Under the pieces are notes generated by a model, which was not told where the DNA came from, did not search any database, and was given only the letters and a program-made list of their open reading frames with translations. This document shows, piece by piece, positions 32,808 through 47,700 of a DNA stretch of 64,000 nt. The stretch is from Halocafeteria seosinensis. Taxonomy: Eukaryota. Within the stretch, counting starts at the first letter, position 1. Every line of letters starts with the position of its first letter. The DNA lies in NCBI GenBank assembly GCA_001687465.1, contig LVLI01000344.1:1-64000 (forward strand), written 5' to 3'. A program made the translations under genes and the position numbers.

Positions 32808-34316
32808 TCACCACCAGAAACTAACACTGAAGCTGAGCGACATGGATCGTATCTGGTGCCAACAACCCTGTGGGATGTATAACGTATCTCCGGGTCCAAT
32901 CAGAGCCTCGTATAGTGGGACTTCCTTAAAGTGAGGAAACTCGTCCAAGTCTGGATTATCTGGGTCCACTTGGCTGGTGTTAGACATTATACCCGGATGA
33001 GGATACAGTCTTTCTCGATAGCGATTGTCCACGAGAACGACACGCTTCCATCCGACAACCTGAGCGAGAAGGTTATGATACGGATCATTATGCAGACACG
33101 AAAGCGTGCCAGTAGGTCCCAACCACGCATTGATCTGAACCTCTCCTGTGGCCTTGGCTTCTTCATCCATTAAAGCGCAATAGTCCGGTACAAGGATATC
33201 TTGGCGCAATTCAGGAATTTGCTCAAAGAGTGGATGCTGTGCAAGATATCCAGTTGTTCCTGCACCATTACAATTATCATTTTGTTTTCCTAAAACGTAT
33301 CGATCTATGAAGTTGTCGAAACGGAGAAGTTCCTGGCCCCAGTTACCGGCCATATAGTGGTCTCCTGTCTCCACGGGCACAGTCCGCAAACCAGCTTGTC
33401 TTTTGAGGTACGATACATTTGCCCACTCTCTGGTTGAGCCATCACTTGTTTTGCCAAAGGCTGGCCACTCGTTTAAGAGCCCTTCAATAACCACTGGAAC
33501 TTTGTTGCCCATGTACTTCTGGAAGAAATCGAATAACGAGGGTGGCTCAGTCACTCGCTCAATCCCATACACTAGCCCTTTATTAGGAGCCTGCGAACTT
33601 CGAAAGAGGTTGGAACGCATTTCTGGAGTAAGTTCACAAGGCTGCTGGATGATTTCGTCTGTTCCTGCATCTTCGGTATTCTGTCCAGATAATTTTGTCA
33701 TTTCTCTTATAATGTCTTGAATTTGACCACGTTCTTGCGGTGTCGTCGTCATGCAGGCCAAATCCAATGTTCTTAACCACTCGGCGACGCGCTCGGTGCA
33801 TGTTTCTTCTATGTGCAAGAGCATATCGTAGTATATAACGAATCTGACAGCTATGGCATATAACACTCGCCAACCCAGAGCCACATCTTTCCAAACTCTT
33901 CCATGAAGCATATCCCAGCAAATTCGTTTGGCTTGGCTACCTAATTTCAGCTGCTGCGAGAGGACAGACGACACCTCATGGGTCCTCTGTCTTTTGGTGG
34001 GTTCAACAGGAGGATTCTCTTCGACACGAGTACTCGTTATGCTCTCAGATCGTCGGTAAGCAGCATGGCCGTAGGTATATGCTTTGTGAAGTACCTGAAC
34101 CACTCCCTGCGCTAGATGCCTATCTGCTGAGGACATAGAATCGATCCAGTGCTCATCACTCGCCTTTTCAATGCCACATCTTCTTTCCTTGGATCTATCT
34201 TTGTCAACTTCTGGGTTCTCTCTATGGTATAACGCTTCGATTCGACCATAATCTTGGCGTGCCACTTCCCTTAGTTGGCGTGTGATAAGCCTCTTCCACC
34301 TGTCGAAATCGTCCAT
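32808..34316 (-). CDS. KDM8: JmjC-domain protein JMJD5/KDM8-like (2OG-Fe(II) oxygenase), single exon
   Basis: 502-aa ORF with RTVPVETG, GYLAQHPLFEQIPELRQDI, NAWLGP.GT.S.LHNDPYHNLLAQVVG and WHQIRSMSLSFSVSFWW. The HxD...H iron triad is intact. Confidence 0.92.
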   Translation of the reverse strand: MDDFDRWKRLITRQLREVARQDYGRIEALYHRENPEVDKDRSKERRCGIEKASDEHWIDSMSSADRHLAQGVVQVLHKAYTYGHAAYRRSESITSTRVEENPPVEPTKRQRTHEVSSVLSQQLKLGSQAKRICWDMLHGRVWKDVALGWRVLYAIAVRFVIYYDMLLHIEETCTERVAEWLRTLDLACMTTTPQERGQIQDIIREMTKLSGQNTEDAGTDEIIQQPCELTPEMRSNLFRSSQAPNKGLVYGIERVTEPPSLFDFFQKYMGNKVPVVIEGLLNEWPAFGKTSDGSTREWANVSYLKRQAGLRTVPVETGDHYMAGNWGQELLRFDNFIDRYVLGKQNDNCNGAGTTGYLAQHPLFEQIPELRQDILVPDYCALMDEEAKATGEVQINAWLGPTGTLSCLHNDPYHNLLAQVVGWKRVVLVDNRYRERLYPHPGIMSNTSQVDPDNPDLDEFPHFKEVPLYEALIGPGDTLYIPQGCWHQIRSMSLSFSVSFWW

Positions 34317-36110
34317 GGCAACATGATATTCCCTAAAATGACTCTAGAAAGCGGGCATACTTTATTGTTGAGTGGTTCGGCGTCTTCGACACTACAAACC
34401 ACTGTCGGTTCTCTCAAGTTAGCACTGCTAGCTTACATTACCGGTACGTTGACAGTAATATATGTGAACTTGCTATGGTTCGAAAAATTCAATTACGAAG
34501 GATAATGAAGGAAAAAAGAATGCAAAGGGTAAGCTGTAGCAGCCATGGAACTGGTCTAGTTGTCGGAACCGGTTGGTGGAGTACTTAAACAGTACGCGTC
34601 TGAAGCGTCACCATAAGGAAGTTTGTCCGTCCACCATCACAGTCAAATCCATTTGGGCACTTAGGGTATTTCATGAATTTGAGAACAACGTAACTCCAGA
34701 AACTCCCCGCATCCAGTGAGGCCCCGTACCCAATATACGTAATAAAACTTCAAAACAGTTTGCGATTTTTGTATTGATTAAGGTGCCTTAGTCACTGTTG
34801 TCGAAGTGTTAAAGTGCCAATATCCAGAAGAACCGGCAGCTTGGTTCGTAGTTTCATATCCGTGTAAAACGCAATGCTTACCGATTCATAGGAAATTTTA
34901 TTGCATCGTCTGCCGAAATCGCGTTTATCCTTGAGCATTTTCGTACAGGAAAGCACTCTGAGACTCCGAATGGCGGAAACGCCTCTTTACAGTTTTGAGC
35001 TTTCCAATGAAATGTTTAAAGGTTCATCTATAGGATCTGGGCGCGCTCTATGCACCACAATAGATCCCGATATGGTAATATTCCCTATATAACTTTCTCA
35101 CAATCTACATAGGTTTCTCCTCTTTTTTTTTCTTTTTTTTGGTATTCAGTTTGTGGTCTCGTCGAACGGGATAATGTTAGCGACCTCCGCTTTCGGACGT
35201 GTTGTAAAAGGGACTTTCAAGCTAACGGAAAAGTGGATCATATTGCCATAAACGTTTAACAAATATTCATTGAGAGGAAGGGAAAGAGAGACAGAAAGGG
35301 TTGTAAGTGAAAGTGACAATCCGGTGAATGGTAAAACTATTCAGATCAACTTGGTGTTTAGATAATATTCTTACACCAGTCTCACACCTACTGTGGCTAA
35401 TGCTGGTAGAATTATACGGGAGGAGAACACATGGTGCTAATTTTTCACGACCCATGATACTTCTAAAGGACGGTGTGCGACATAAAGGAAATGAGAAAAC
35501 AAACTACGACGAACTAGCCCCATCGAATGAAGTCCTACCGGAACTACAAACATTTCCTTTATGTCGCACACCATCCTTTAGAACTATCGTCAACGACAAT
35601 AAATTCGTTAATCCAATACTGTTGCTGCGGCGCAGAACCTTGGCTTCCATCGTTTAGTACCAGTAGTACTGTGACGCATCGCACCCAATCCTTTGGATTC
35701 CTTTCCTGATCAACTTCAACGATACATTCTTTTCGCAGACTTTCGGAATGAGTTTTGTACTCAAAGCCTTAAAAAAGGACCTTTTTGCTAACATTTCATC
35801 AGTGTTTATATTTGCCCTCCTAGATTTGTTTGAATACATGGCAGATAGAAGTTTATATGTTCCCAGTTCTCGGATCGTTACTGGGACCTAGTATTGAGTG
35901 CGCATACCCTGGGTTCCTCAAGGACACGGAGAGAGTCTCTTTTGTCACTCAAGAAATAGCAGAAAATAGTGGGAACTGAGACTGGACTGTCATACAGTAT
36001 TTTAGCACGATATACGCAGGACCTCTGTTATTCTATTGCAAGTTCTTCGCACGCGCCAATCGATAGGGGAAGGAACCTGGTAGAGGGACTTTGTTTGAAC
36101 AAGTAGAACG

Positions 36111-39100
36111 ATGAACAGTGAGGAGAAACAAGGGACGACTGCTTCCCTCGTGGAACAGGCTTCCTTGAAAGCACGGCAACTGTCTTCGTCCCAATACAAC
36201 ATGGAACTAGTCAAAGAAAGCTTGGACTTTGAGTCGATTGATGAACTAGAGTATGTCAACCGCAAGAAAGCGCTACTGACCCAAGACGACGCGTTAAACT
36301 TGCAATGCGATTGCCGGACACAATTTGATGATGAGCTTATATGTGAGGATGAACGCTGCATTAATTATACCTCTAGAACAGAATGCCCCTTGGGAACATG
36401 TAGTAAACGACGGTGTGGAAATAAACGATTTCAGAAGAAGCAGTGGAAGGAGGTGGAGGTAACACCAGTAAGTCTGACTTTAGTTATTGAACTCGTGCAT
36501 ACACCTTTTTCTATTAAATGAAGCATGTCAAACTCTGTATGTATACTGTGCTTCTTATTCAGACGGAGAAAAAAGGAAACGGATTATTCTTGTGCGAACC
36601 AGCTGATGCTGGGGATTTCTTGATTGAATACGTTGGGGAAGTTATTTCAGAAAATGAGTATAATTCCCGGATGGACAAGTATAGACAGGAGGTGTGTGAA
36701 CTCGTTGATGTGCTGTCAAAGGGAAATTGATTGAAGCCCTCAAACTCTGTGCTTACGTCGCAGAAGAGGAAACACTTTTACATGCTTCAGATCAGAAAAC
36801 AAGAATACATTGATGCTTGCCAGAAAGGAAATGTAGCTCGGTTTATTAACCATAGTTGCGAGCCAAACTGCAGGACAGAAGTATGGTAGGTGCAAAGAAA
36901 ACAGATTATACCTTGTTGGCGTAACCATCCTCCGTTCATGTCTTCAGGCACGTGGGAAAAGAGGAGCGCGTGGGGATTTTCGCTATTAGGGATATCCGCG
37001 CCCAAGAGGAATTATGTTTCGATTACCAGTGGCAACGTATTGGTGAAGACAGAATCAAGTGCTACTGCGGGACGGCCAGCTGTAGAGGCTATTTGGGGGC
37101 TAAAGAAGATGATAGAGCAGGGCTCCCCTGTGGGCGATTTCGTGAACCACATGAGACGGAACTGGCGGCGGGCAAGTCCCTCATTAATAAATTCGTGCGG
37201 GTCCATAAGGATAACGATGATTTAATAGGGTCTTCTAAGAGCCGGGCCAAAGCAGTTAAAGCGAAGCGTGAGAGTTCAGTGGAACTAAGTGAGGATGTTG
37301 TAGAGGAAGATGAGGATGGAATATGGTTTGCCGCCCGCGTTAGCGATTATAATAGCACAACCGGTGGGCACAAACTCGCGTATTTGTTGGATGACACAAT
37401 ACAAGAAGAGGATTTGAGAACCGATCGATGGCAAATCCTGGAGGCCTCTCACTTGGGGCCAACGACGGCGTTAGATGAAGCAGAACCAAGCGAGGTTGCC
37501 AATCTGCCTCGTCGCCACAATGCGGAGCAAATGGAAGAACTAAAGAGGGAGTACCAACAGCAGCTCCAGGAAGAAGAAGATGCGGCTGCTGTTGCAGCCG
37601 TAGAAAGGCAAAAACGTGCGAGAAAGCTCCTGGAAAAGACTCAACGTGCTTGGGAAAAGAAACTCGAAGAACAAGAAAAAATGTCTAGGCGGAAGAACAG
37701 AGAAATTGCCGAGCAGCTCAGAAAGAGCAGGGAAACGGAAGAAACAGATTTGGAGGAACAAGAGCAGCCCAATTCGGCTTCCAAAATTGACATGCGCCGG
37801 AAGATGGAAAGTTTCCTCCAGCAAGATGGTAAAAGCCAAGAACAAGAGGCTTTAGAATACTGGGGTGAAAGTGCGGTATCTCATCGCTCGACTGCAACAA
37901 GCCAGGCTAGCCATTATTCCGGAAAACGGAGCCGCCAAGCACATAATGACGACAAATCGCGAAAAAAGAGGAGACTGAAAGACAAGCGACGCTTCTCATT
38001 CACCGAGTACAGGAATCATGCAGGAGAAGTGAATCTACGGCCAACCCACGGTTCCCGGTTTCCGTTTGAATTGAGTTGGCGCTTTGCCGTACGAGATGTT
38101 ATCTCACCACCTTCAAAGAAGCACGGCTTCTCGTTGGAAGATGAGTACCTTTGGAGGTATCATGCTCAGCTATTGGTGGCCCAATCTGCGAGGGACCTGG
38201 AGGTGTCCTTCAGAATGATGCTTCGAGCAATGCTAATAACGCACAAGTTTTGCAGCGCATGTAGCCTAAAAAATATCCCCCTGAGGGCGGTCGTATCTGC
38301 TTCCCTTTTAATTGCTCACAAATTTGAGATGCAGGTGGATGATAAGCAAAAGTTTTCTGTCTCCAGAATATCTAGAAGAGTGGCGAAGACTGCAAAGGAG
38401 ATGATTTCCAAACATTCCAAAGATTTTACTTTCAGCCAGCAAGACGAGCCTGGACCAGTCCGGGAAAGCATTCATGGATATTGCTGTGGAGTCCTTTATG
38501 AGAACTCTTTTTCTTCACCTGAGCAGCTGCAAAGAGCATCAGAGCTATCTGCCTTTAGTCCCGAAGGTATGACGTCAACGGATTATTTCGCCATGGAATG
38601 CCTGCGGGCTGTGCATACTGAACGTCTCGTTCTGGGTGTTTTACGCTTCTGCGTAGACGACATAGATGTCGAGGGGATAATTGGTTTGCTGGATACGAGC
38701 TGGGCTTCGAGCTTTCTGGGGGATGAGAAACGCAGCAAAACGAAACGAGATGAGATTTTGAAAAAGCACCCGTGGTTGCAATATGCCGCGCGGGCTAAGG
38801 ATGAAGATGGACAAATCTGTTATTGGAGAAGCCTCACGCAGTTGGTGGTTGTAATTTCGTTAATTACTCGACCTTGGCTTTGGAACCTACACGTTCCTGA
38901 AGCTGTGATCAGTTCCATTGCTCATTGGTGCGCATATGACGCCGATCCGGAAAACGTCAATTCTGCCAACAAGGGTACATTTGAGCTGGCATTTCAGCAC
39001 CGTTACCTGTACATTCAGTCAGCGTCGAAGACTCTGCGCTATTCTTCGCTTAAGACTCTTGTAACTGGAAGAGATATTAGATACTTGCTACCTTTCGTTG

Positions 39101-41109
39101 ATCATCGTTTCGGAGTGCGGTATTCGCAAGACTGTGTGCCTGTTGCCCGTTTAGCTTGTCCAACCGTCTCAAACGAAGACTTGGAAAAGGATATCCGAGA
39201 ACGTGTGCAAGTCCTGTCTAACATGATCAACGATGATGAATCGGAAACGAGCATCAGCGGCGACGGTTTCAGTGAGACCCTTCCCGTAGACCTACTTCAG
39301 TCAGAACAATGGAGATTCAGACATGAGATCGCGTTGCCTACGTCTCGCGACGACGAGACAAAGCTGCGGACTGTAAATGATTTCGAATTCGTGGGTCAAC
39401 TTTCTGGAGGCTGCTATGTGGCAATTGACCACGGCCGTCACTTGGATAAACCAAAGCTAGTTTTACTGAAGAAATGGCCCGAGAGAGGATGTGAACAACC
39501 TTCGGAATCCCTAACTGCAATAGCAGATCAGAAATTGTATGGACTTGCCTCTTCGGCGTTTTGCGAACTGAATTATTTCCGTATACTGCACTGTCCTTGG
39601 AGAGACACAAACCCGAAAGAGGAGTTGGTCCAGTCCATTTACGAAGGTATATCGCGCAGCGTATCCTCGCCTTCCAGAGCAAAAGTCAACAGGAATATAA
39701 TCTTACCAGTGGAAATGGTTGTTGGTGAGAGTTTTCTCTCTTCGATGAGCTATGTTGTTGGTGACAATGATTCCATCCCTGTGCAAACGGCCGACCCGCC
39801 ATGTACAGAGTGTGATATTGCTGGTGTACCTGACATTCCTGATGGTAAGCTTCGGGAAGAGAACTTCATGGTAATGGAATACCTTCCTCACAACTTGAAA
39901 GGATTGACGATGGCAGGTGTGAACTTTACTCCGCCTTTCCAGTTAAAGTTTTCTTCTAGCGTCCTAAAAGCAGTACGGGCGCTACACCGGCACGATATTG
40001 TTCACCACCATATTAACTGCAATCACGTGCTTCTCTCGGACACTGGTGAGGTGAGGCTCTACGGGTTGGGTGATGCAAAATCGTTTGATCGGGCTTTCGT
40101 AAAAAATGCTGAGCAAAAGCTGAATAGCAAACCGAGCAAGGTTGATGAAACTGAGATTGTTTCTTTGGCTAATTCGTTTCGCGTAGATCCAACGAAAAAG
40201 GCAGGCTCTGCGCATGTCTGCCGACCGCCTGAGCTACTGATTGGGTGCTCTTTGTACTTGCCAGCTTCCGATATGTGGTCATTGGGCTGCGTACTTGCCG
40301 AGGCATACTTGGGGGAACCATTATTCGATGGTACAGCGACGATCAAAGAACTGGCAACTGACATTGCAAGGTTCTGTGGTAATTGGAGAAAGGCATGGCC
40401 AATGTGCAAACGTCTTACTGATGATGAGATGATCAGTGACGTAGCAGTGGTCACGGATGGTCTCAAGGCTCACTTAATGAAAAAGAACCTTCCCGAACCT
40501 CAAGCCAAGTTACTGAGCCATTTACTGCAGATCAATCCAGTCAAGCGTGTCACGGCGGAATCTGCTTTGCGCATGTCATTTTTCAAGAAGCACTCGCCTC
40601 CTCCTGATGACCGATTAGTGACTTTTTCGGCCAAGTTCCCGTTCGAAGAACTAAGAATAGACCCATCTGCACCAGTGGAAGGTTCGGAATTAGCACAAAT
40701 TCTACCGTTGCGTAGCTACGAAATGCGCCTAAGGGAAAGAAAAGCGCAAGTAGTGCTGGACAAAAGTTTTTGGAGGAACGTCCTTCAACGGATAGGTGCC
40801 CTTGGCTCCTCGCCCTCCGGAGAGAATGCTGGACATCCTGGGAAGAATGGTGAGATCGACAGTATGATGACCGATACAAGTCAAAGCGGGAAAAATCGTG
40901 AGTCGGGCACAACTCCTACGGAGTCAGGCCGCGGAGTCGATTCCCGAGGATCATATCATCATCACTCGAATTCTTACCGAGATTCTTCGAAGGATGAGAT
41001 GTACAGTAGCTCAAGCAGAACCGACGATGGAGACACCAAGCGGCAACTTGAGTACGATGAAGCGGTTAACTCCGACGAAGACAGAAGCAACAACGTAGAC
41101 ATGTCTTAA
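36111..41109 (+). CDS. AWS-SET-postSET (Set2/ASHH-type) histone methyltransferase fused to Tudor-like, cyclin T/K-like and CDK-like pseudokinase domains (~1589 aa)
   Basis: Exons 36111-36467, 36563-36691, 36764-36885 and 36948-41109, all with GT-AG introns. AWS Cys cluster, [30 protein letters not shown] and post-[16 protein letters not shown]. Cyclin-like [33 protein letters not shown]. Kinase-like [25 protein letters not shown] and [13 protein letters not shown]. Confidence 0.88.
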
Positions 41110-41788: not shown

Positions 41789-44700
41789 ATGGGTGCTGTC
41801 TGTACCAAGGATGGTGGGAAGCCTCGAGCACACACCGACTCTTCCAAAAAGGCGTACCATGGGCAAGAGTTCCGTGGAGGAGCGGCGGCGGCTTCTCCTC
41901 CTCAAGACGTCTTGTACAGCCACAGTGGGGATTCGGCCTCCACCCCTAACGGCAGCGGATGGGTACGTGCGCTTCCCACCCATTACTTTTATTTTTTATT
42001 TTTTGTGGCTGTACTATACATGCATACATGAGTGAATCTCTGTATTGTGCTCTCAGAGTCCTTCGGATAGCAAGAGCCCCTCAGCCAGAAAGTCGTCTTT
42101 GGTCCGAAGCCCAGTGCACCAAAAATCCACGCCGGCTGTCCCCGACATGCACTCAGTGGAGAACCTCTTCACGCAAGGCGAAGCTGATGCGGAATTCACG
42201 TATCGAGGAGGACTTAAGGGATTAAAGCTGAAGCCGGAACGTATGTCCACTGTCTTGTTTCCTTTTTTTTATCTTTCGGTTGGTTTACATTGGAGTGGTG
42301 ATACAGAAGTCAAACATCGACAGCTAAAGGATGGCGCTCAGCAAAGTACAGAATCACAAGCCATATCCACCGGGGCAATAGAGCCACTGAACCAAGAAGC
42401 CGAGGATGACAATAGGAGCACCAGTAGTAGCGACAGCGAAGAAAGCGAAAGGTCCCAGCTGGTATGCCTGGATTGGCTAGAAAGTGATAGCGTCGGTGGC
42501 GAGGATTTTACAGAGAGTCCCGAACGAATTTTCTACGAAAACGATGAACATTTTGAGCGAAACGATAGTGTTAAGGGACTTCGCATGACGATTGACGGTG
42601 GGTTCCAACCACAAACTGCCTCAGGTTCCGACAGTGAGGATGAGGACGTGGGGAACTTTCTCGAGGATGATGACGATGACAAGGATTTTGACGATGATTC
42701 AGGAAATGGGGAGTCAGCAGAGAATAAAGAAACTAAGTCTTACAGTGTAGGTCCCTTGCCGTTCGTGTATACTGAAGTGCGGCGTTTGCAGAGACACTCT
42801 TTAATTTGTTTACAGGAATCTAGCAATTCGGATCAAATGTACCAACAGCAGTTCAAAACGTTCGATAAAGAATGGCAGAGTCTCGAAACGCTGAACCTTG
42901 TGTTGGAAAGGTAGGCTTACGGTACACTAGTGTGGACTGTTTTCGTTGGAACGACAGGTACTTTTTTATTTATATTTCTTCTACTACCAGGGCTCACATC
43001 CCTCAGAAGGAGCAAGACAAGTTTTTGAGTGCTTTGCAACGTGAGGAGTTCTCGCCTGGAGAATATATCGTGAGGGAAGGTGAGATGGGAGACAAAGTAA
43101 GTCTATCGCTTGATGTTCGATGCCGTCTGCTTTGGGAACGACGAACTTTCCCGCTCTCCCAGTTTTACATTGTTACTGAAGGCGAAGTTGTAGTCACGAA
43201 AAATGCACCGCAACAAAGAAAGCGCCGAAAGAGTCTTGTAGAGATGATCTCATCCTCATTAAAACGGAAGGAGGTTGTTCCGGAGAAAACCATCACTCGT
43301 CTCTATCAGGTATGTTTAGAAACCGGCGCGGTATCTTCTGCTACTTCAAATCTTGCTTAGTCGGATAATCCACACAGGGACATTTCTTTGGTGAAACATC
43401 GTTAGCAAAGGAAGAACCTCGAAACGCGAACGTCAAAGTTCCGAATAACGGCACTAAAGTGGTCTGCATGAGCATGACGAAAGACGTCTTTAAGCCTTTC
43501 CTTGAACAAGAGACAAATTTCAGAAAGGTATATGCTTCATCATTTTATCCAATGTGACTCGACGGTTTGCCCTGAATGGTACATGTTCATTCGATGCAGA
43601 TGATTGGAGAGCTTATGATGAAGAAAGAAGAAGTGAGAAGTCGCCGGCAGAGTGTTAGCATGAGCAAACTCCAGGATATGGCCAAGAAGCAGACCCAGTT
43701 GACGGAAAATGATGCCAAAATATTGCGCTTGCTACGACGAGTTAGAACAAGTGATGGCCGAGTTGTCATAAACAATTATCTCCTGAATAAGCTCTTAGGC
43801 AAAGGGTCATACGGATCGGTATGGTTGGCGCGACACTTGGGATCCGGGCAACATTGCGCGGTTAAAGTAGTTTCTCGAAACATGCTAAGGAAAAAACAAC
43901 TCAATAAGCGAAGCAATGCTCAGGTCCTGAGAGAGTTCGCTGTGATGAAGAAACTCAGTCATCCCAACTTGGTAAAACTTCACGAAGTCATAGATGATCC
44001 CGAGGGAGACTTATTCTACATGGTACAGGCAAGTAGTCATACACGTTGTGTCCTAATCTTCTCGCTTCTCATTAACATGTTCACAAATGCTATGCTGTCA
44101 ACAGGAATACCTTGAACTCGGACCTATAATGACTGAGCAAGAATATAATCAACCACTCGAGTTATCTGTCGCTAGAAAGTACTTTAGAGATATCCTTAAC
44201 GCTGTGCATTATCTGCATTACCAGGGTGTAGCTCACCGGGATATCAAGCCCTCGAATGTACTCGTCTCCACCACCGGCAGTTGCAAACTGGCGGACTTTG
44301 GAGCGTCTGTCATCACCAAAGACGGGATGGCAGAACTCAATGACGTTAAAGGGACGCCTGCATTCCAACCTCCAGAAGTATTCACCACTGATAGTGGGGC
44401 ACGATACGATTCCATTGCCGTCGATATGTGGGCTGTTGGGGCGACGCTTCACTGCATGGTAGTTGGAATCCCTCCTTATATGGCGAACAATGAGCTCGAG
44501 CTTGTGGAAAAACTGAAAAATGAGCCGTTTCGACTTGCTGCAAACATTCAGCTGGATCCACATTTGAAAAATTTGCTACTGCGCCTACTCACCAAGGATC
44601 CAGAGAAGAGAGCTACCCTTTCCGACGTAATGGAGCATGACTGGGTTACCGATGAAGGCTCTATGCCTTTGGTGTTACCGACGTACAAGTATCTTGATCT

Positions 44701-47700
44701 CGCCAATAACTTGGAGACGATTGAAAAAGATATTGAGAGAAAGCAAAAACACCATGCCCGAAAAGCAGCCCGAAATTCGATATACAGGAGCCCTGACTCT
44801 CCAGGAATTGCTGAAAGGGGATACTCCTTTGGTAGTAGCAATAGCAGCTTTGGAGACTCGTACCATTCCATAGAGTCGAAGCCAAAGGCGGCCGAAGCAG
44901 AATCTCCTCCCAGAAGGAGAGCTAGGTCTGTGAGCGTTGAATCTGAGCCCTCGCCCGAGTACCGCCGAAATCATTTTGATGGTATTCGAGGTTCTCCTCT
45001 GGGACCGCGTGGGCAAGATGGAACATCCGAAAAGAACGATCTGACGGATGTGACCGACTCGGAAAGTCCCTCTCTGCCTCCGCAGGCTCCAACGGGGAAC
45101 CGGGCGAACTCCAGTTGGAATTCTCTAGATCAGTATAACAAATCCCGAGCTCGGTTTCGGTCTGCCGATGACTCTAGTCCCTATGGAGGAACCATCTTGC
45201 CACTTCACGGGGAAAGTACTTCGCACCAAGCAGAGTCGAATGCCCTTCCTTTTAGGCGGAGCGGTTCGAGTGACGCATCCGTCAAACACAATACCTCTCC
45301 TTTTGGGATCCGAATGAATAGCAGGAACAAGTCTCTGCGAGCAACGTCTTCCGCATACCACATGATGCGAGCTTCATCTCGGACCCTGAAAGAACGCTCG
45401 CCAGAGCGTAGCGGGCATGCAATGAAGCCTGTGGACGATGCATCAGCAGCTAAAGCTCACCTGCAGAAACTGAGGTCCCGAGAACAATTCTTTCTGAACA
45501 AGTTGAGTGCTGACAAAGGAACAGATATCTTACAGGAGCAAATACGTTCAACGTCTTATCCCGTAAACACGGAATCAATCATCGAAGAAATACTCTTTGA
45601 TGCCAGTGGCAGTGTCATTGACCCTCTTGAGACACCACATTCGAATTCAGGATCAACTGCTGGCAGTGGTCTTTCAGCTTCGCACTCAAACCTTCGCTCA
45701 TCTGCGGAAAATGGGAGAGGCGATTATAAGAAGTGCAATTCAGACGTACCGATGAAACACGGAGCAAATGAGCAGTCTATTGACGCTGAGCAACCTATTC
45801 ACAATGGATCCGATCTTACAACTCTTGATGTTTCTGCAGAAGAAGCGCATACAGTTGATATTTCAACGAACAGCTTTTCAAATCTGGGAGTGTCATCGGG
45901 GGACAGGCCACTTTCCACTGTGTTAGAAACACCTGCGTCTTCCGGTGGCACAAGTGGGAAAGCTTCGTCTGTATTACCCAGCTCTGACGAAGATGAGCCA
46001 AAGAGCGATCTTAAATTGTATACCTCGTTTTCTGAGCTTGAAAATAAATCATCTCGTGGACAATCTTCATTGACCCGGGCAGACGACTTTATGATGGTGC
46101 CAAAGGCGTCACACGCAGGGGGATCGGCCAAGGTAGTGTATCGAGTAGAAGGTGGAATTATGCGCGCTCATACTCTTCACGATGACCATCAAAAGAGCAA
46201 TTCATCTGAAGGCACTTCGAAGCTGGTCTCCCCAAAGGGCAGGGGATTTAGCGGCCCCGATGATACGATCGAAGAATCTGAGGAGCACCAGCTGGGCAAG
46301 TCCGACGACAACGATAACGATTCGAGTGACTTTAGCACTGCAGACGAAATTGAGACTGTCGACGATATGGAAGGGGATAAAATCAACAAAAACCTGGAAA
46401 CTGTGCTAGACGGACTCGGTAGAGTTCAAGACAAGCAGCTTGCAAACTTGACGAAGGAGGAAGCTCAGAAATGGAAATCTTGCCAAACTGATTTGCATCT
46501 GAATGTTCCCGCCACTGACGAGAAGATCCAATACTTAATTGATGAGGACATTCCACAACACAAATCTGTGGCCACAGCCGGATCGTTGCCGCGTCGAGAT
46601 GCAGGAAGAGACACAAGTGGCGCTACGTCGTACAGTACATCTGGCTCCGTGAATGCTCAACAGAAGGAAGCTCTCCCCCAGGTTGAGCAGCAATGCCAAG
46701 GCATTATGAGGCGAGACGTACGAGGAAAGAATGGGAAATTGGGACTGCTGTATGCCCTTGCAGCCCAGCAGGGCAGTCTTCCGGCTATGGAGGACCGTGC
46801 TGTTGTTATCCCCTCCCTAAATGAAGTTGCATCCCAATTCAGTTCCAATGGCTATCCTCAATGTGCGTATTTCGCAGTATTTGATGGCCACAGTGGAGAC
46901 TTGACGAGCTCTGCATTGGCACATCGTTTACATGAACATATACTAGCTCACAAGGCAATCACTAACCCAGATCCAACTTCGGCTTTAGTAGATGGATGTC
47001 TAGATTGTGACGAGGAGATACTGCAGGCTTCGAACAACGACATTTCCGGATCTACAGCTGTTGTCATATTTATGACAAAGCCCGATAGAGATTCCCCTAC
47101 GTACATTTACTGCGCAAATGTGGGTGATTCGCGTGCTATCCTTTCACGACACGGGACTGTGATAGAGCTTTCTGTTGATCATAAAGCGACTCGGCCTGAT
47201 GAATTAAAGAGAATAGAGAATGCAGGTGGGCACGTTGTGAACGGCAGGGTACAAGGTGTGCTGGCAATCTCAAGAGCATTCGGGGACGGTATGTGTCACA
47301 GCATCGAGCACTTCGTGCTGGTTTTTGACATTACGTTGTTCTTTCTCTTTCTACAGCTGAGTGCAAGAACGGACGTAACGAAGATATACCGACAAACGTT
47401 CTCACTGCCTCACCCGAGGTAATGCATGAAGCGGTCCAGCCGGAGGACGATTTTATTGTGGTATGTAAAGATTTTTTGAGGCGTGCGTTTGCTCTCTCAT
47501 AGGAGTTCCAATTGACGTACAGTTGGCCTCGGATGGTCTATGGGATGTAATGACAAACCAGGAAGTAGTCAATTACGTAAGGAGGCAGCTTTCGGAACAT
47601 GGAGATGTTACAAAGGCAAATGAGCAACTAGTGGAAAAGGCGATTGCCTCTAGTAACCATGATAACGTAACCAGTATCCTCATTGGGTTGAATCAGGGCA

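Follow-up and report, generated by a model that had tools for sequence, protein, structure and literature searches.

The window analysed here, 64,000 nucleotides from Halocafeteria seosinensis (assembly GCA_001687465.1, contig LVLI01000344.1, positions 1 to 64,000), an organism which we take to be a bicosoecid, contains a single spliced and real gene on the forward strand (36111-41109) that fuses a SET methyltransferase to a cyclin and to a domain with the fold of a cyclin-dependent kinase (CDK). The domains of the encoded protein are ordered AWS-SET-post-SET, Tudor-like block, charged coil, cyclin and CDK fold, and the residues that make a kinase active are replaced in the last of these. We propose, giving the idea about an even chance, that this putative writer of methylation on lysine 36 of histone H3 (H3K36), which has no SRI domain, docks on the transcription machinery through a dead cyclin-CDK scaffold.

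Gene structure and transcript support

A stop-free frame of 1394 codons (36925-41109, + strand) holds everything from the SET C-terminus and post-SET through the Tudor-like block, the charged coil and the cyclin-like region to the CDK fold, as a first-pass annotation of the DNA had already seen. With its start codon at 36111 and GT-AG introns of 95, 72 and 62 nt, the model has four exons and encodes 1589 aa. The protein P0002, encoded by a complete open reading frame (ORF) of a public transcript assembly, is equally long and shows five substitutions relative to the model. Splice joints come from contigs of four runs (X1-X4) of one study, the kind of run being unrecorded: all three introns are skipped exactly in contigs of three of the four runs (X2-X4) and are unskipped in those of X1. 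The transcripts do not end before the cyclin, as a single X3 contig spans 37216-41095 and passes through both cyclin and CDK, and overlapping contigs connect the SET exons to it. Given the single frame, the transcript-derived protein and the contigs that skip the exact introns, the fusion is not an artefact of the gene model or of the assembly, and the annotation was right to say that splice modelling had not created it. The motifs quoted by the annotation are found at 37324 (WFAARV), 38104 (SPPSKKHG), 38620 (a 10-residue motif), 39367 (a 12-residue motif), 39874 (an 11-residue motif) and 40222 (RPPELLIG). The features of the gene, all on the + strand, are as follows.

36111..36467, +: exon 1, with the start codon, the AWS (pre-SET) cysteine cluster (about 36294-36446) and the start of SET (AWS E 3e-4 on the exon alone; transcript match; splice contigs)
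36468..36562, +: intron 1, 95 nt, GT-AG (skipped in X2-X4, not in X1)
36563..36691, +: exon 2, SET domain (domain match; splice contigs)
36692..36763, +: intron 2, 72 nt, GT-AG (splice contigs)
36764..36885, +: exon 3, SET domain, with the RFINHSC motif at 36839 (domain match; splice contigs)
36886..36947, +: intron 3, 62 nt, GT-AG (splice contigs)
36948..41109, +: exon 4, from the SET C-terminus through the stop codon in one frame (ORF; splice contigs)
36948..37098, +: SET C-terminus (ELCFDY, 37009) and post-SET cysteines (37048-37098) (motifs; alignments)
37123..37437, +: Tudor-like block with a 30-residue insert, common to the family (diatom profile E 5e-6)
37513..37995, +: linker, charged and probably a coil, with a basic patch that may be a nuclear signal; diatom members have predicted KH-like folds in mid-protein in its place (sequence)
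38077..39054, +: cyclin domain, T/K-like, with a long insert and a poorly modelled second box (helix-3 Lys in LIAHKF, 38308, and helix-5 Glu in TERLVL, 38617, kept)
39352..40599, +: CDK-fold pseudokinase with an intact C-lobe (Gly loop shortened, 39394; LLKKWP of beta-3, 39463; alpha-C Glu, 39556; HHHINCNH, 40003; GLG, 40063)
40600..41109, +: C-terminal tail, mostly low complexity, without an SRI domain (Pfam; sequence)

Contigs of the spliced type extend about 300 bases 5' of the ATG (35815-36110), where several clustered differences between the runs are found.

The kinase domain: a CDK fold that has lost catalysis

Sequence searches with the window kinase return CDK12 (E 1e-24) and CDK13, then CDK5 and CDK9. 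Its model superposes on CDK12 (Z 31.0, root mean square deviation (rmsd) 2.8, 307 aligned) and on CDK9 (Z 30.9), and CDK9 comes first in a fold search among 48,161 representatives (Z 30.1); the fold searches with this model returned kinases throughout and speak for the kinase part.

The first-pass annotation had missed that HRD is replaced by HHH and DFG by GLG. The HRDIKCSN stretch of CDKs aligns to the HHHINCNH region, the catalytic Asp and the Mg-binding Asn of the catalytic loop are both His, the Asp of DFG is replaced, and the Gly-rich loop is shortened to SGGCY; the beta-3 Lys and the alpha-C Glu are present. We aligned 127 family rows, each column being counted over the rows aligned there. 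The catalytic Asp occurs in 0/114, the loop Asn in 0/114 and the DFG Asp in 1/89, and all three are present in each of 102 control CDK domains, those hits of a HMMER search that have a full, strong domain. The beta-3 position is Lys in none of the 97 diatom-type rows, all of which keep the alpha-C Glu, and two structural residues, the APE Glu and the alpha-F Asp, are found in 125/125 family rows. Judged by these residues, the kinase domain cannot phosphorylate by the canonical route: it is a pseudokinase, and was so throughout the history of the family.

The kinase lobes are 59-63% identical to those of the relative P0003, compared with 36-38% for the linker and tail, and 20 of the 24 coding differences among those listed are synonymous (21 further ones lie outside the list). 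The higher identity of the lobes and the mostly synonymous differences indicate that the dead domain is under constraint.

The cyclin domain and its predicted packing

A cyclin T1 match (E 0.009) covers the first 88 residues of the middle region, and cyclin T1 occupies all of the ten best rows. Pfam gives no Cyclin_N match in the window protein itself, and the assignment rests on this 88-residue match and on the relatives. P0006, linked to the window cyclin region in a local search of the collected proteins (E 1.6e-11), matches cyclin K (E 1.5e-5). Cyclin_N scores 21.8-23.6 bits in four relatives against a Pfam cut-off of 23, and is precomputed for nine of the 120 listed among 151 relatives. 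Aligned to the diatom cyclin, a profile built from five non-diatom rows gives E 2.6e-5, compared with E 0.79 for a control region, and a word search with the cyclin region had P0002 as its sole match among 4052 candidates.

The diatom cyclin alone has no PDB sequence match at E 1. The model of the diatom-type protein P0375 shows a two-box cyclin fold, closest to cyclin L2 (Z 18.9, rmsd 3.3, 206 aligned), then to cyclin T1 (Z 17.1) and to chain B of yeast CTDK-1 (Z 16.3). In the model of the window protein only the first three cyclin helices are confident, with a predicted local distance difference test (pLDDT) of about 77, and pLDDT is low in the second box. The initial suggestion that the middle region is a cyclin of transcriptional type is supported by the cyclin T1 match, by the cyclin K match of P0006 and by the fold of P0375.

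The helix-3 Lys and helix-5 Glu of the cyclin are kept in the window protein, P0003 and P0006. Both are invariant in 97/97 diatom-type rows, together with the Gly, Ala, Leu and Glu of alpha-C, and in cyclin A and cyclin T structures the corresponding residues are cyclin-CDK contacts. AlphaFold2 models the P0375 fragment as one compact unit, with a predicted template modelling score (pTM) of 0.83 over 1060 aa. A complex prediction of the window cyclin with the window kinase, run without a supplied alignment, scored 0.01 and speaks neither for nor against the pairing. On the diatom model, the cyclin and the dead CDK are predicted to pack in cis as one rigid unit.

The SET domain and the Tudor-like block

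Pfam finds SET (3.5e-25), Pkinase (2.1e-18) and AWS (0.0085, below the AWS cut-off) in P0002, and NCBIfam gives SET and kinase matches under cut-off only. Residues 39-256 score 182 bits with Set2, 177 with SETD2, 143 with NSD and 129 with ASH1L; by class, KMT3 enzymes reach 126-182 bits, H3K4 enzymes at most 96 and EZH2 80. The S-adenosylmethionine-binding and catalytic motifs RFxNHSC and FDY are intact in the window protein, as are the post-SET cysteines, aligned to those of SETD2; within the family, NHSC is found in 119/125 rows and FDY in 113 of those 119. By these similarities the SET domain is of the KMT3 (Set2/NSD/ASH1) class and its substrate is likely to be histone H3K36. The original label of Set2-type methyltransferase holds for the class and for the top scores, and strict SETD2 orthology appears less sure than the label implied. 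In a quick, unrooted SET tree of 56 rows, 15 of them from the family (P0050 and P0167 being excluded as partial, and with no fungal Set2 row), the family rows and two PHD-type rows stand apart from SETD2, NSD, ASH1 and ASHH2 (Shimodaira-Hasegawa-like approximate likelihood ratio test (SH-aLRT) 87, unstarred); the family is not one clade there, yet no starred branch forbids its monophyly. As first noted from the letters, the SRI domain is missing: Pfam gives no SRI (PF08236, E 0.01) or WW match in P0002, and the domain annotation of all 120 listed relatives of the 151 is free of SRI.

A profile of the diatom Tudor-like block matches the window protein and three other non-diatom members (four of the seven tested, E 2e-9 to 5e-6) and none of 107 other SET proteins below E 1. 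Weak Pfam Tudor matches, under cut-off, occur in the relative P0168 only, and the block has no meaningful PDB sequence match. About 320 residues, with the charged linker, separate SET from the cyclin-pseudokinase module.

P0375 and P0277, both of the diatom type, carry extra alpha/beta folds of KH-like look before the cyclin and between cyclin and pseudokinase, the resemblance being one of secondary structure predicted in the AlphaFold2 model and unconfirmed by Pfam; their kinase N-lobes also contain GLRWW as a conserved insertion. Both the folds and the insert are absent from the window protein.

Distribution of the family

Using HMMER over 1.84 billion representatives, we recovered P0003 (50% identical) and the divergent P0006, P0007 and P0050, all with their parts in the same order (P0003 and P0007 being entries that start after the SET domain), and a profile search added P0167-P0169. 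The diatom-type query P0277 returned 151 proteins; SET and Pkinase occur together in 113 of the 120 listed. Listed relatives with names are nearly all diatoms (Seminavis, Nitzschia, Cylindrotheca, Epithemia, Amphora, Cyclotella, Cyclostephanos), and one is labelled Alexandrium and may be a contaminant. A metagenome scan gave 148 pattern matches and no confirmed relative. Outside the diatoms, the range of the family rests on PITG_14137 of Phytophthora infestans and on the window organism. A Trp-Pro after beta-3 is common to the window protein, P0003, P0006 and 97/97 diatom-type rows, and this pair, with the shared Tudor-like block, favours a single origin of the family. The diatom profile of the short beta-3/alpha-C block, by which the window protein scores no higher than ordinary CDKs, speaks against it. 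The architecture, whose novelty had been left open at the outset, is thus not peculiar to one genome, having diatom relatives, and is not wholly undescribed, PITG_14137 being on record (PMC3019232).

A proposed docking scaffold and its alternatives

In the mechanism that we propose, the cyclin and the dead CDK would pack in cis and act as a protein-binding platform. The platform would dock on the elongating RNA polymerase II complex through surfaces inherited from a pair of the CDK12/9-cyclin K/T type, so taking the place of the missing SRI domain. A separate, real CDK would still perform the phosphorylation, and the Tudor-like block may read or hold the nucleosome. We favour this reading because the simplest reason for a transcription-type cyclin beside a CDK fold would be the reuse of surfaces by which such pairs are brought to the elongation complex. 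In the window protein, the captured cyclin and the captured kinase alike point to the transcriptional class: the matches are cyclin T1 for its cyclin, cyclin K for that of P0006, CDK12/13 for its kinase and CHED/CRK7 for PITG_14137. Also in favour are the SET scores with Set2 and SETD2, the loss of catalytic residues beside invariant interface residues, the compact P0375 model, the constraint on the dead domain, the missing SRI domain and the H3K36me3 that P. sojae retains after loss of PsKMT3. Within this proposal, a stramenopile ancestor may have captured an elongation CDK-cyclin pair, lost its catalysis and kept it as a hook that replaces the SRI/phospho-CTD mechanism (CTD, carboxy-terminal domain of polymerase II) in diatoms, oomycetes and bicosoecids, a history that we hold only tentatively and think somewhat doubtful.

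Several observations weigh against docking. The CMGC arginine before the APE motif shapes the proline pocket of these kinases, and it survives in one of 125 rows, that of the window protein. The canonical proline pocket is therefore not what is being kept, and the loss argues against a CTD heptad held as substrate; binding of the CTD as a plain substrate was rejected on this count, and the docking partner is probably not a CTD peptide in the substrate groove. With the diatom profile, Fus3 and kinases of the CDK1/2 type come first and CDK12 and CDK9 fall outside the best 60 rows, and Foldseek of the diatom model puts CDK2 first. The CDK9/12 likeness proposed initially thus stands for the window protein, whose nearest matches are CDK12/13/9, and the subtype is unsure, since CDK1/2-type or MAP kinases lead with the diatom profile and model. 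A diatom beta-3/alpha-C profile gives the window protein 1.5 bits and ordinary CDKs up to 9.2. The divergent P0007, P0050 and P0167 have neither the cyclin Lys nor the Glu in the alignment. The cyclin-kinase part of the window protein, modelled from a shallow alignment, reached a pTM of 0.52 with a poor second cyclin box. Finally, the quick SET tree does not join the family with SETD2, and the PHD-type KMT3 of a Phytophthora (P. megakarya) falls among the family rows.

The dead cyclin-CDK could instead be mainly an internal regulator or brace of SET, autoinhibitory or allosteric, with targeting left to the Tudor-like block or the linker. This would suit a domain that has lost catalysis and retained its fold and C-lobe while its substrate pocket is unconserved, and SETD2 itself has an auto-inhibitory domain and an SPT6 tether separate from SRI (PMC12572195). 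The module, however, lies 320 residues from SET behind a charged linker, and a brace would hardly call for the capture of a CDK along with a transcription-type cyclin; we consider this explanation unlikely. Slightly less probable is that the module targets RNA, the spliceosome or the 3'-end machinery, in the manner of CDK11-cyclin L or CDK12, or that the enzyme has a non-histone substrate. Cyclin L2 is the best structural match of the diatom cyclin, diatom members have the KH-like-looking folds, and H3K36 specificity is assigned by similarity only, oomycetes having a separate PHD-type KMT3 (PMC10013772); the window protein, however, is without such folds, its sequence matches cyclin T and CDK12/13, and its SET domain has the full KMT3 layout.

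We regard as improbable that the fused cyclin activates a separate, active CDK9/12 in trans, the pseudokinase being a placeholder or an inhibitor: the cyclin does retain the two CDK contact residues, but the alpha-C helix of the pseudokinase is equally invariant, and the model of the diatom fragment predicts a single compact unit. Very little credence is left for the idea with which the work began, an active elongation kinase hard-wired to the writer, in which the same-chain CDK-cyclin would recruit its own methyltransferase by phosphorylating the CTD or SPT5. The beta-3 Lys and alpha-C Glu are present in the window protein, but the catalytic Asp, the Asn and the DFG Asp are replaced there, the Gly loop is shortened and the beta-3 Lys is missing from the diatom-type rows; an active kinase was rejected on the family counts for the three replaced residues. 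Misassembly, read-through from a neighbour or a drifting pseudogene, to which the divergence of cyclin and kinase (and nothing else that we found) might point, is refuted by the one exon, the matching transcript protein, the splice joints, the mostly synonymous differences and more than 100 relatives of the same layout, and has a negligible probability.

If the docking scaffold is real, it would offer a natural example of an entire CDK-cyclin pair recast as a scaffold, revealing the surfaces that matter apart from catalysis. In the stramenopile deposition of trimethylated H3K36 (H3K36me3), where a link is missing, the family makes a concrete candidate, and if the window organism is indeed a bicosoecid the fusion spans the deepest stramenopile split.

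Neighbouring genes

Head to head with the SET gene, at about 1.8 kb, lies a JmjC/Cupin_8 gene (32808-34343, - strand) with a weak KDM8-like N-terminal match; KDM8 is a disputed demethylase of dimethylated H3K36. At 2-24766 (- strand), a stop-free frame of 8255 codons runs off the window; it is 18% Ser and 18% Gly and repetitive in style, and, tested as five pieces, has no Pfam match at E 0.001. We would guess its product to be a giant surface or beta-solenoid protein. A single frame at 44057-47422 (+ strand) encodes both a protein kinase and a PP2C phosphatase domain, a combination of which P. infestans has four examples (PMC3019232, Table 2).

Comparison with known systems

The family has a single earlier mention, two sentences long, and within the open-access literature searched it has never been characterised: we found there (subscription papers being outside the scope) no account of the internal cyclin, of the wider range or of a function. 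Judelson and Ah-Fong in 2010 described P. infestans PITG_14137 as a fusion of a histone methyltransferase with an inactive kinase, held it to be Phytophthora-only and, in the part available, gave it no function (PMC3019232). Like the window protein, this 1501-aa protein has an N-terminal SET and a C-terminal CDK-like domain, marked 'bad' (inactive), its best match being CHED and its nearest family CMGC/CDK/CRK7 (Table S1 of the same paper). By eye, it also has the Tudor-like block after post-SET and the Trp-Pro after beta-3. It differs in that its Pfam column contains SET alone, the cyclin not being listed in the part available. On these likenesses PITG_14137 is very likely an orthologue of the window protein. 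The texts available of PMC13076208, which describes H3K36me3 on the bodies of expressed genes in brown algae, and of PMC13289920 mention no SET-cyclin-CDK protein of the window type, and that of PMC4392632 held nothing relevant to it. One SETD2 candidate each is reported for two diatoms and Ectocarpus, namely Phatr 50375, Thaps 35510 and Esi0028_0153, the domain layout not being stated in the part available (PMC3145265).

With Set2/SETD2 (KMT3A) the window protein shares the AWS-SET-post-SET order, its highest scores and intact catalytic and zinc motifs; it differs by the lack of an SRI or WW match and by having a Tudor-like block, a cyclin and a pseudokinase instead. For SETD2, the route to polymerase II is by way of SRI and the phosphorylated CTD, with SPT6 as a tether (PMC12572195). 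In some stramenopiles YSPTSPA repeats are regular, and the array of Thalassiosira pseudonana is reduced (PMC3646058). Three oomycete KMT3 clades are reported; in P. sojae no SRI domain was found according to the accessible text, about half of the H3K36me3 is left after loss of PsKMT3, and the authors call the mechanism of deposition unclear (PMC10013772). PsKMT3 resembles the window protein as an SRI-less stramenopile KMT3 that writes part of H3K36me3, but is made of AWS, SET and PHD, and the available main text is without a cyclin and has 'kinase' in one reference only (PMC10013772); it is probably a paralogue of the window-type family.

Oomycete CDKs with an integral C-terminal cyclin, such as PITG_21617, also combine CDK and cyclin in one chain with the catalytic Asp replaced; by contrast, in PITG_21617 the kinase comes first, the best match is CDK2, the change is Asp to Asn only and there is no SET, which makes it a separate fusion (PMC3019232). 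The closest counterparts of the module itself are CDK12/13-cyclin K, P-TEFb (CDK9-cyclin T) and yeast CTDK-1, with which it shares both folds, the nearest matches and the kept interface residues, and from which the window protein differs in being one chain with the cyclin first, dead, fused to a methyltransferase and carrying long inserts.

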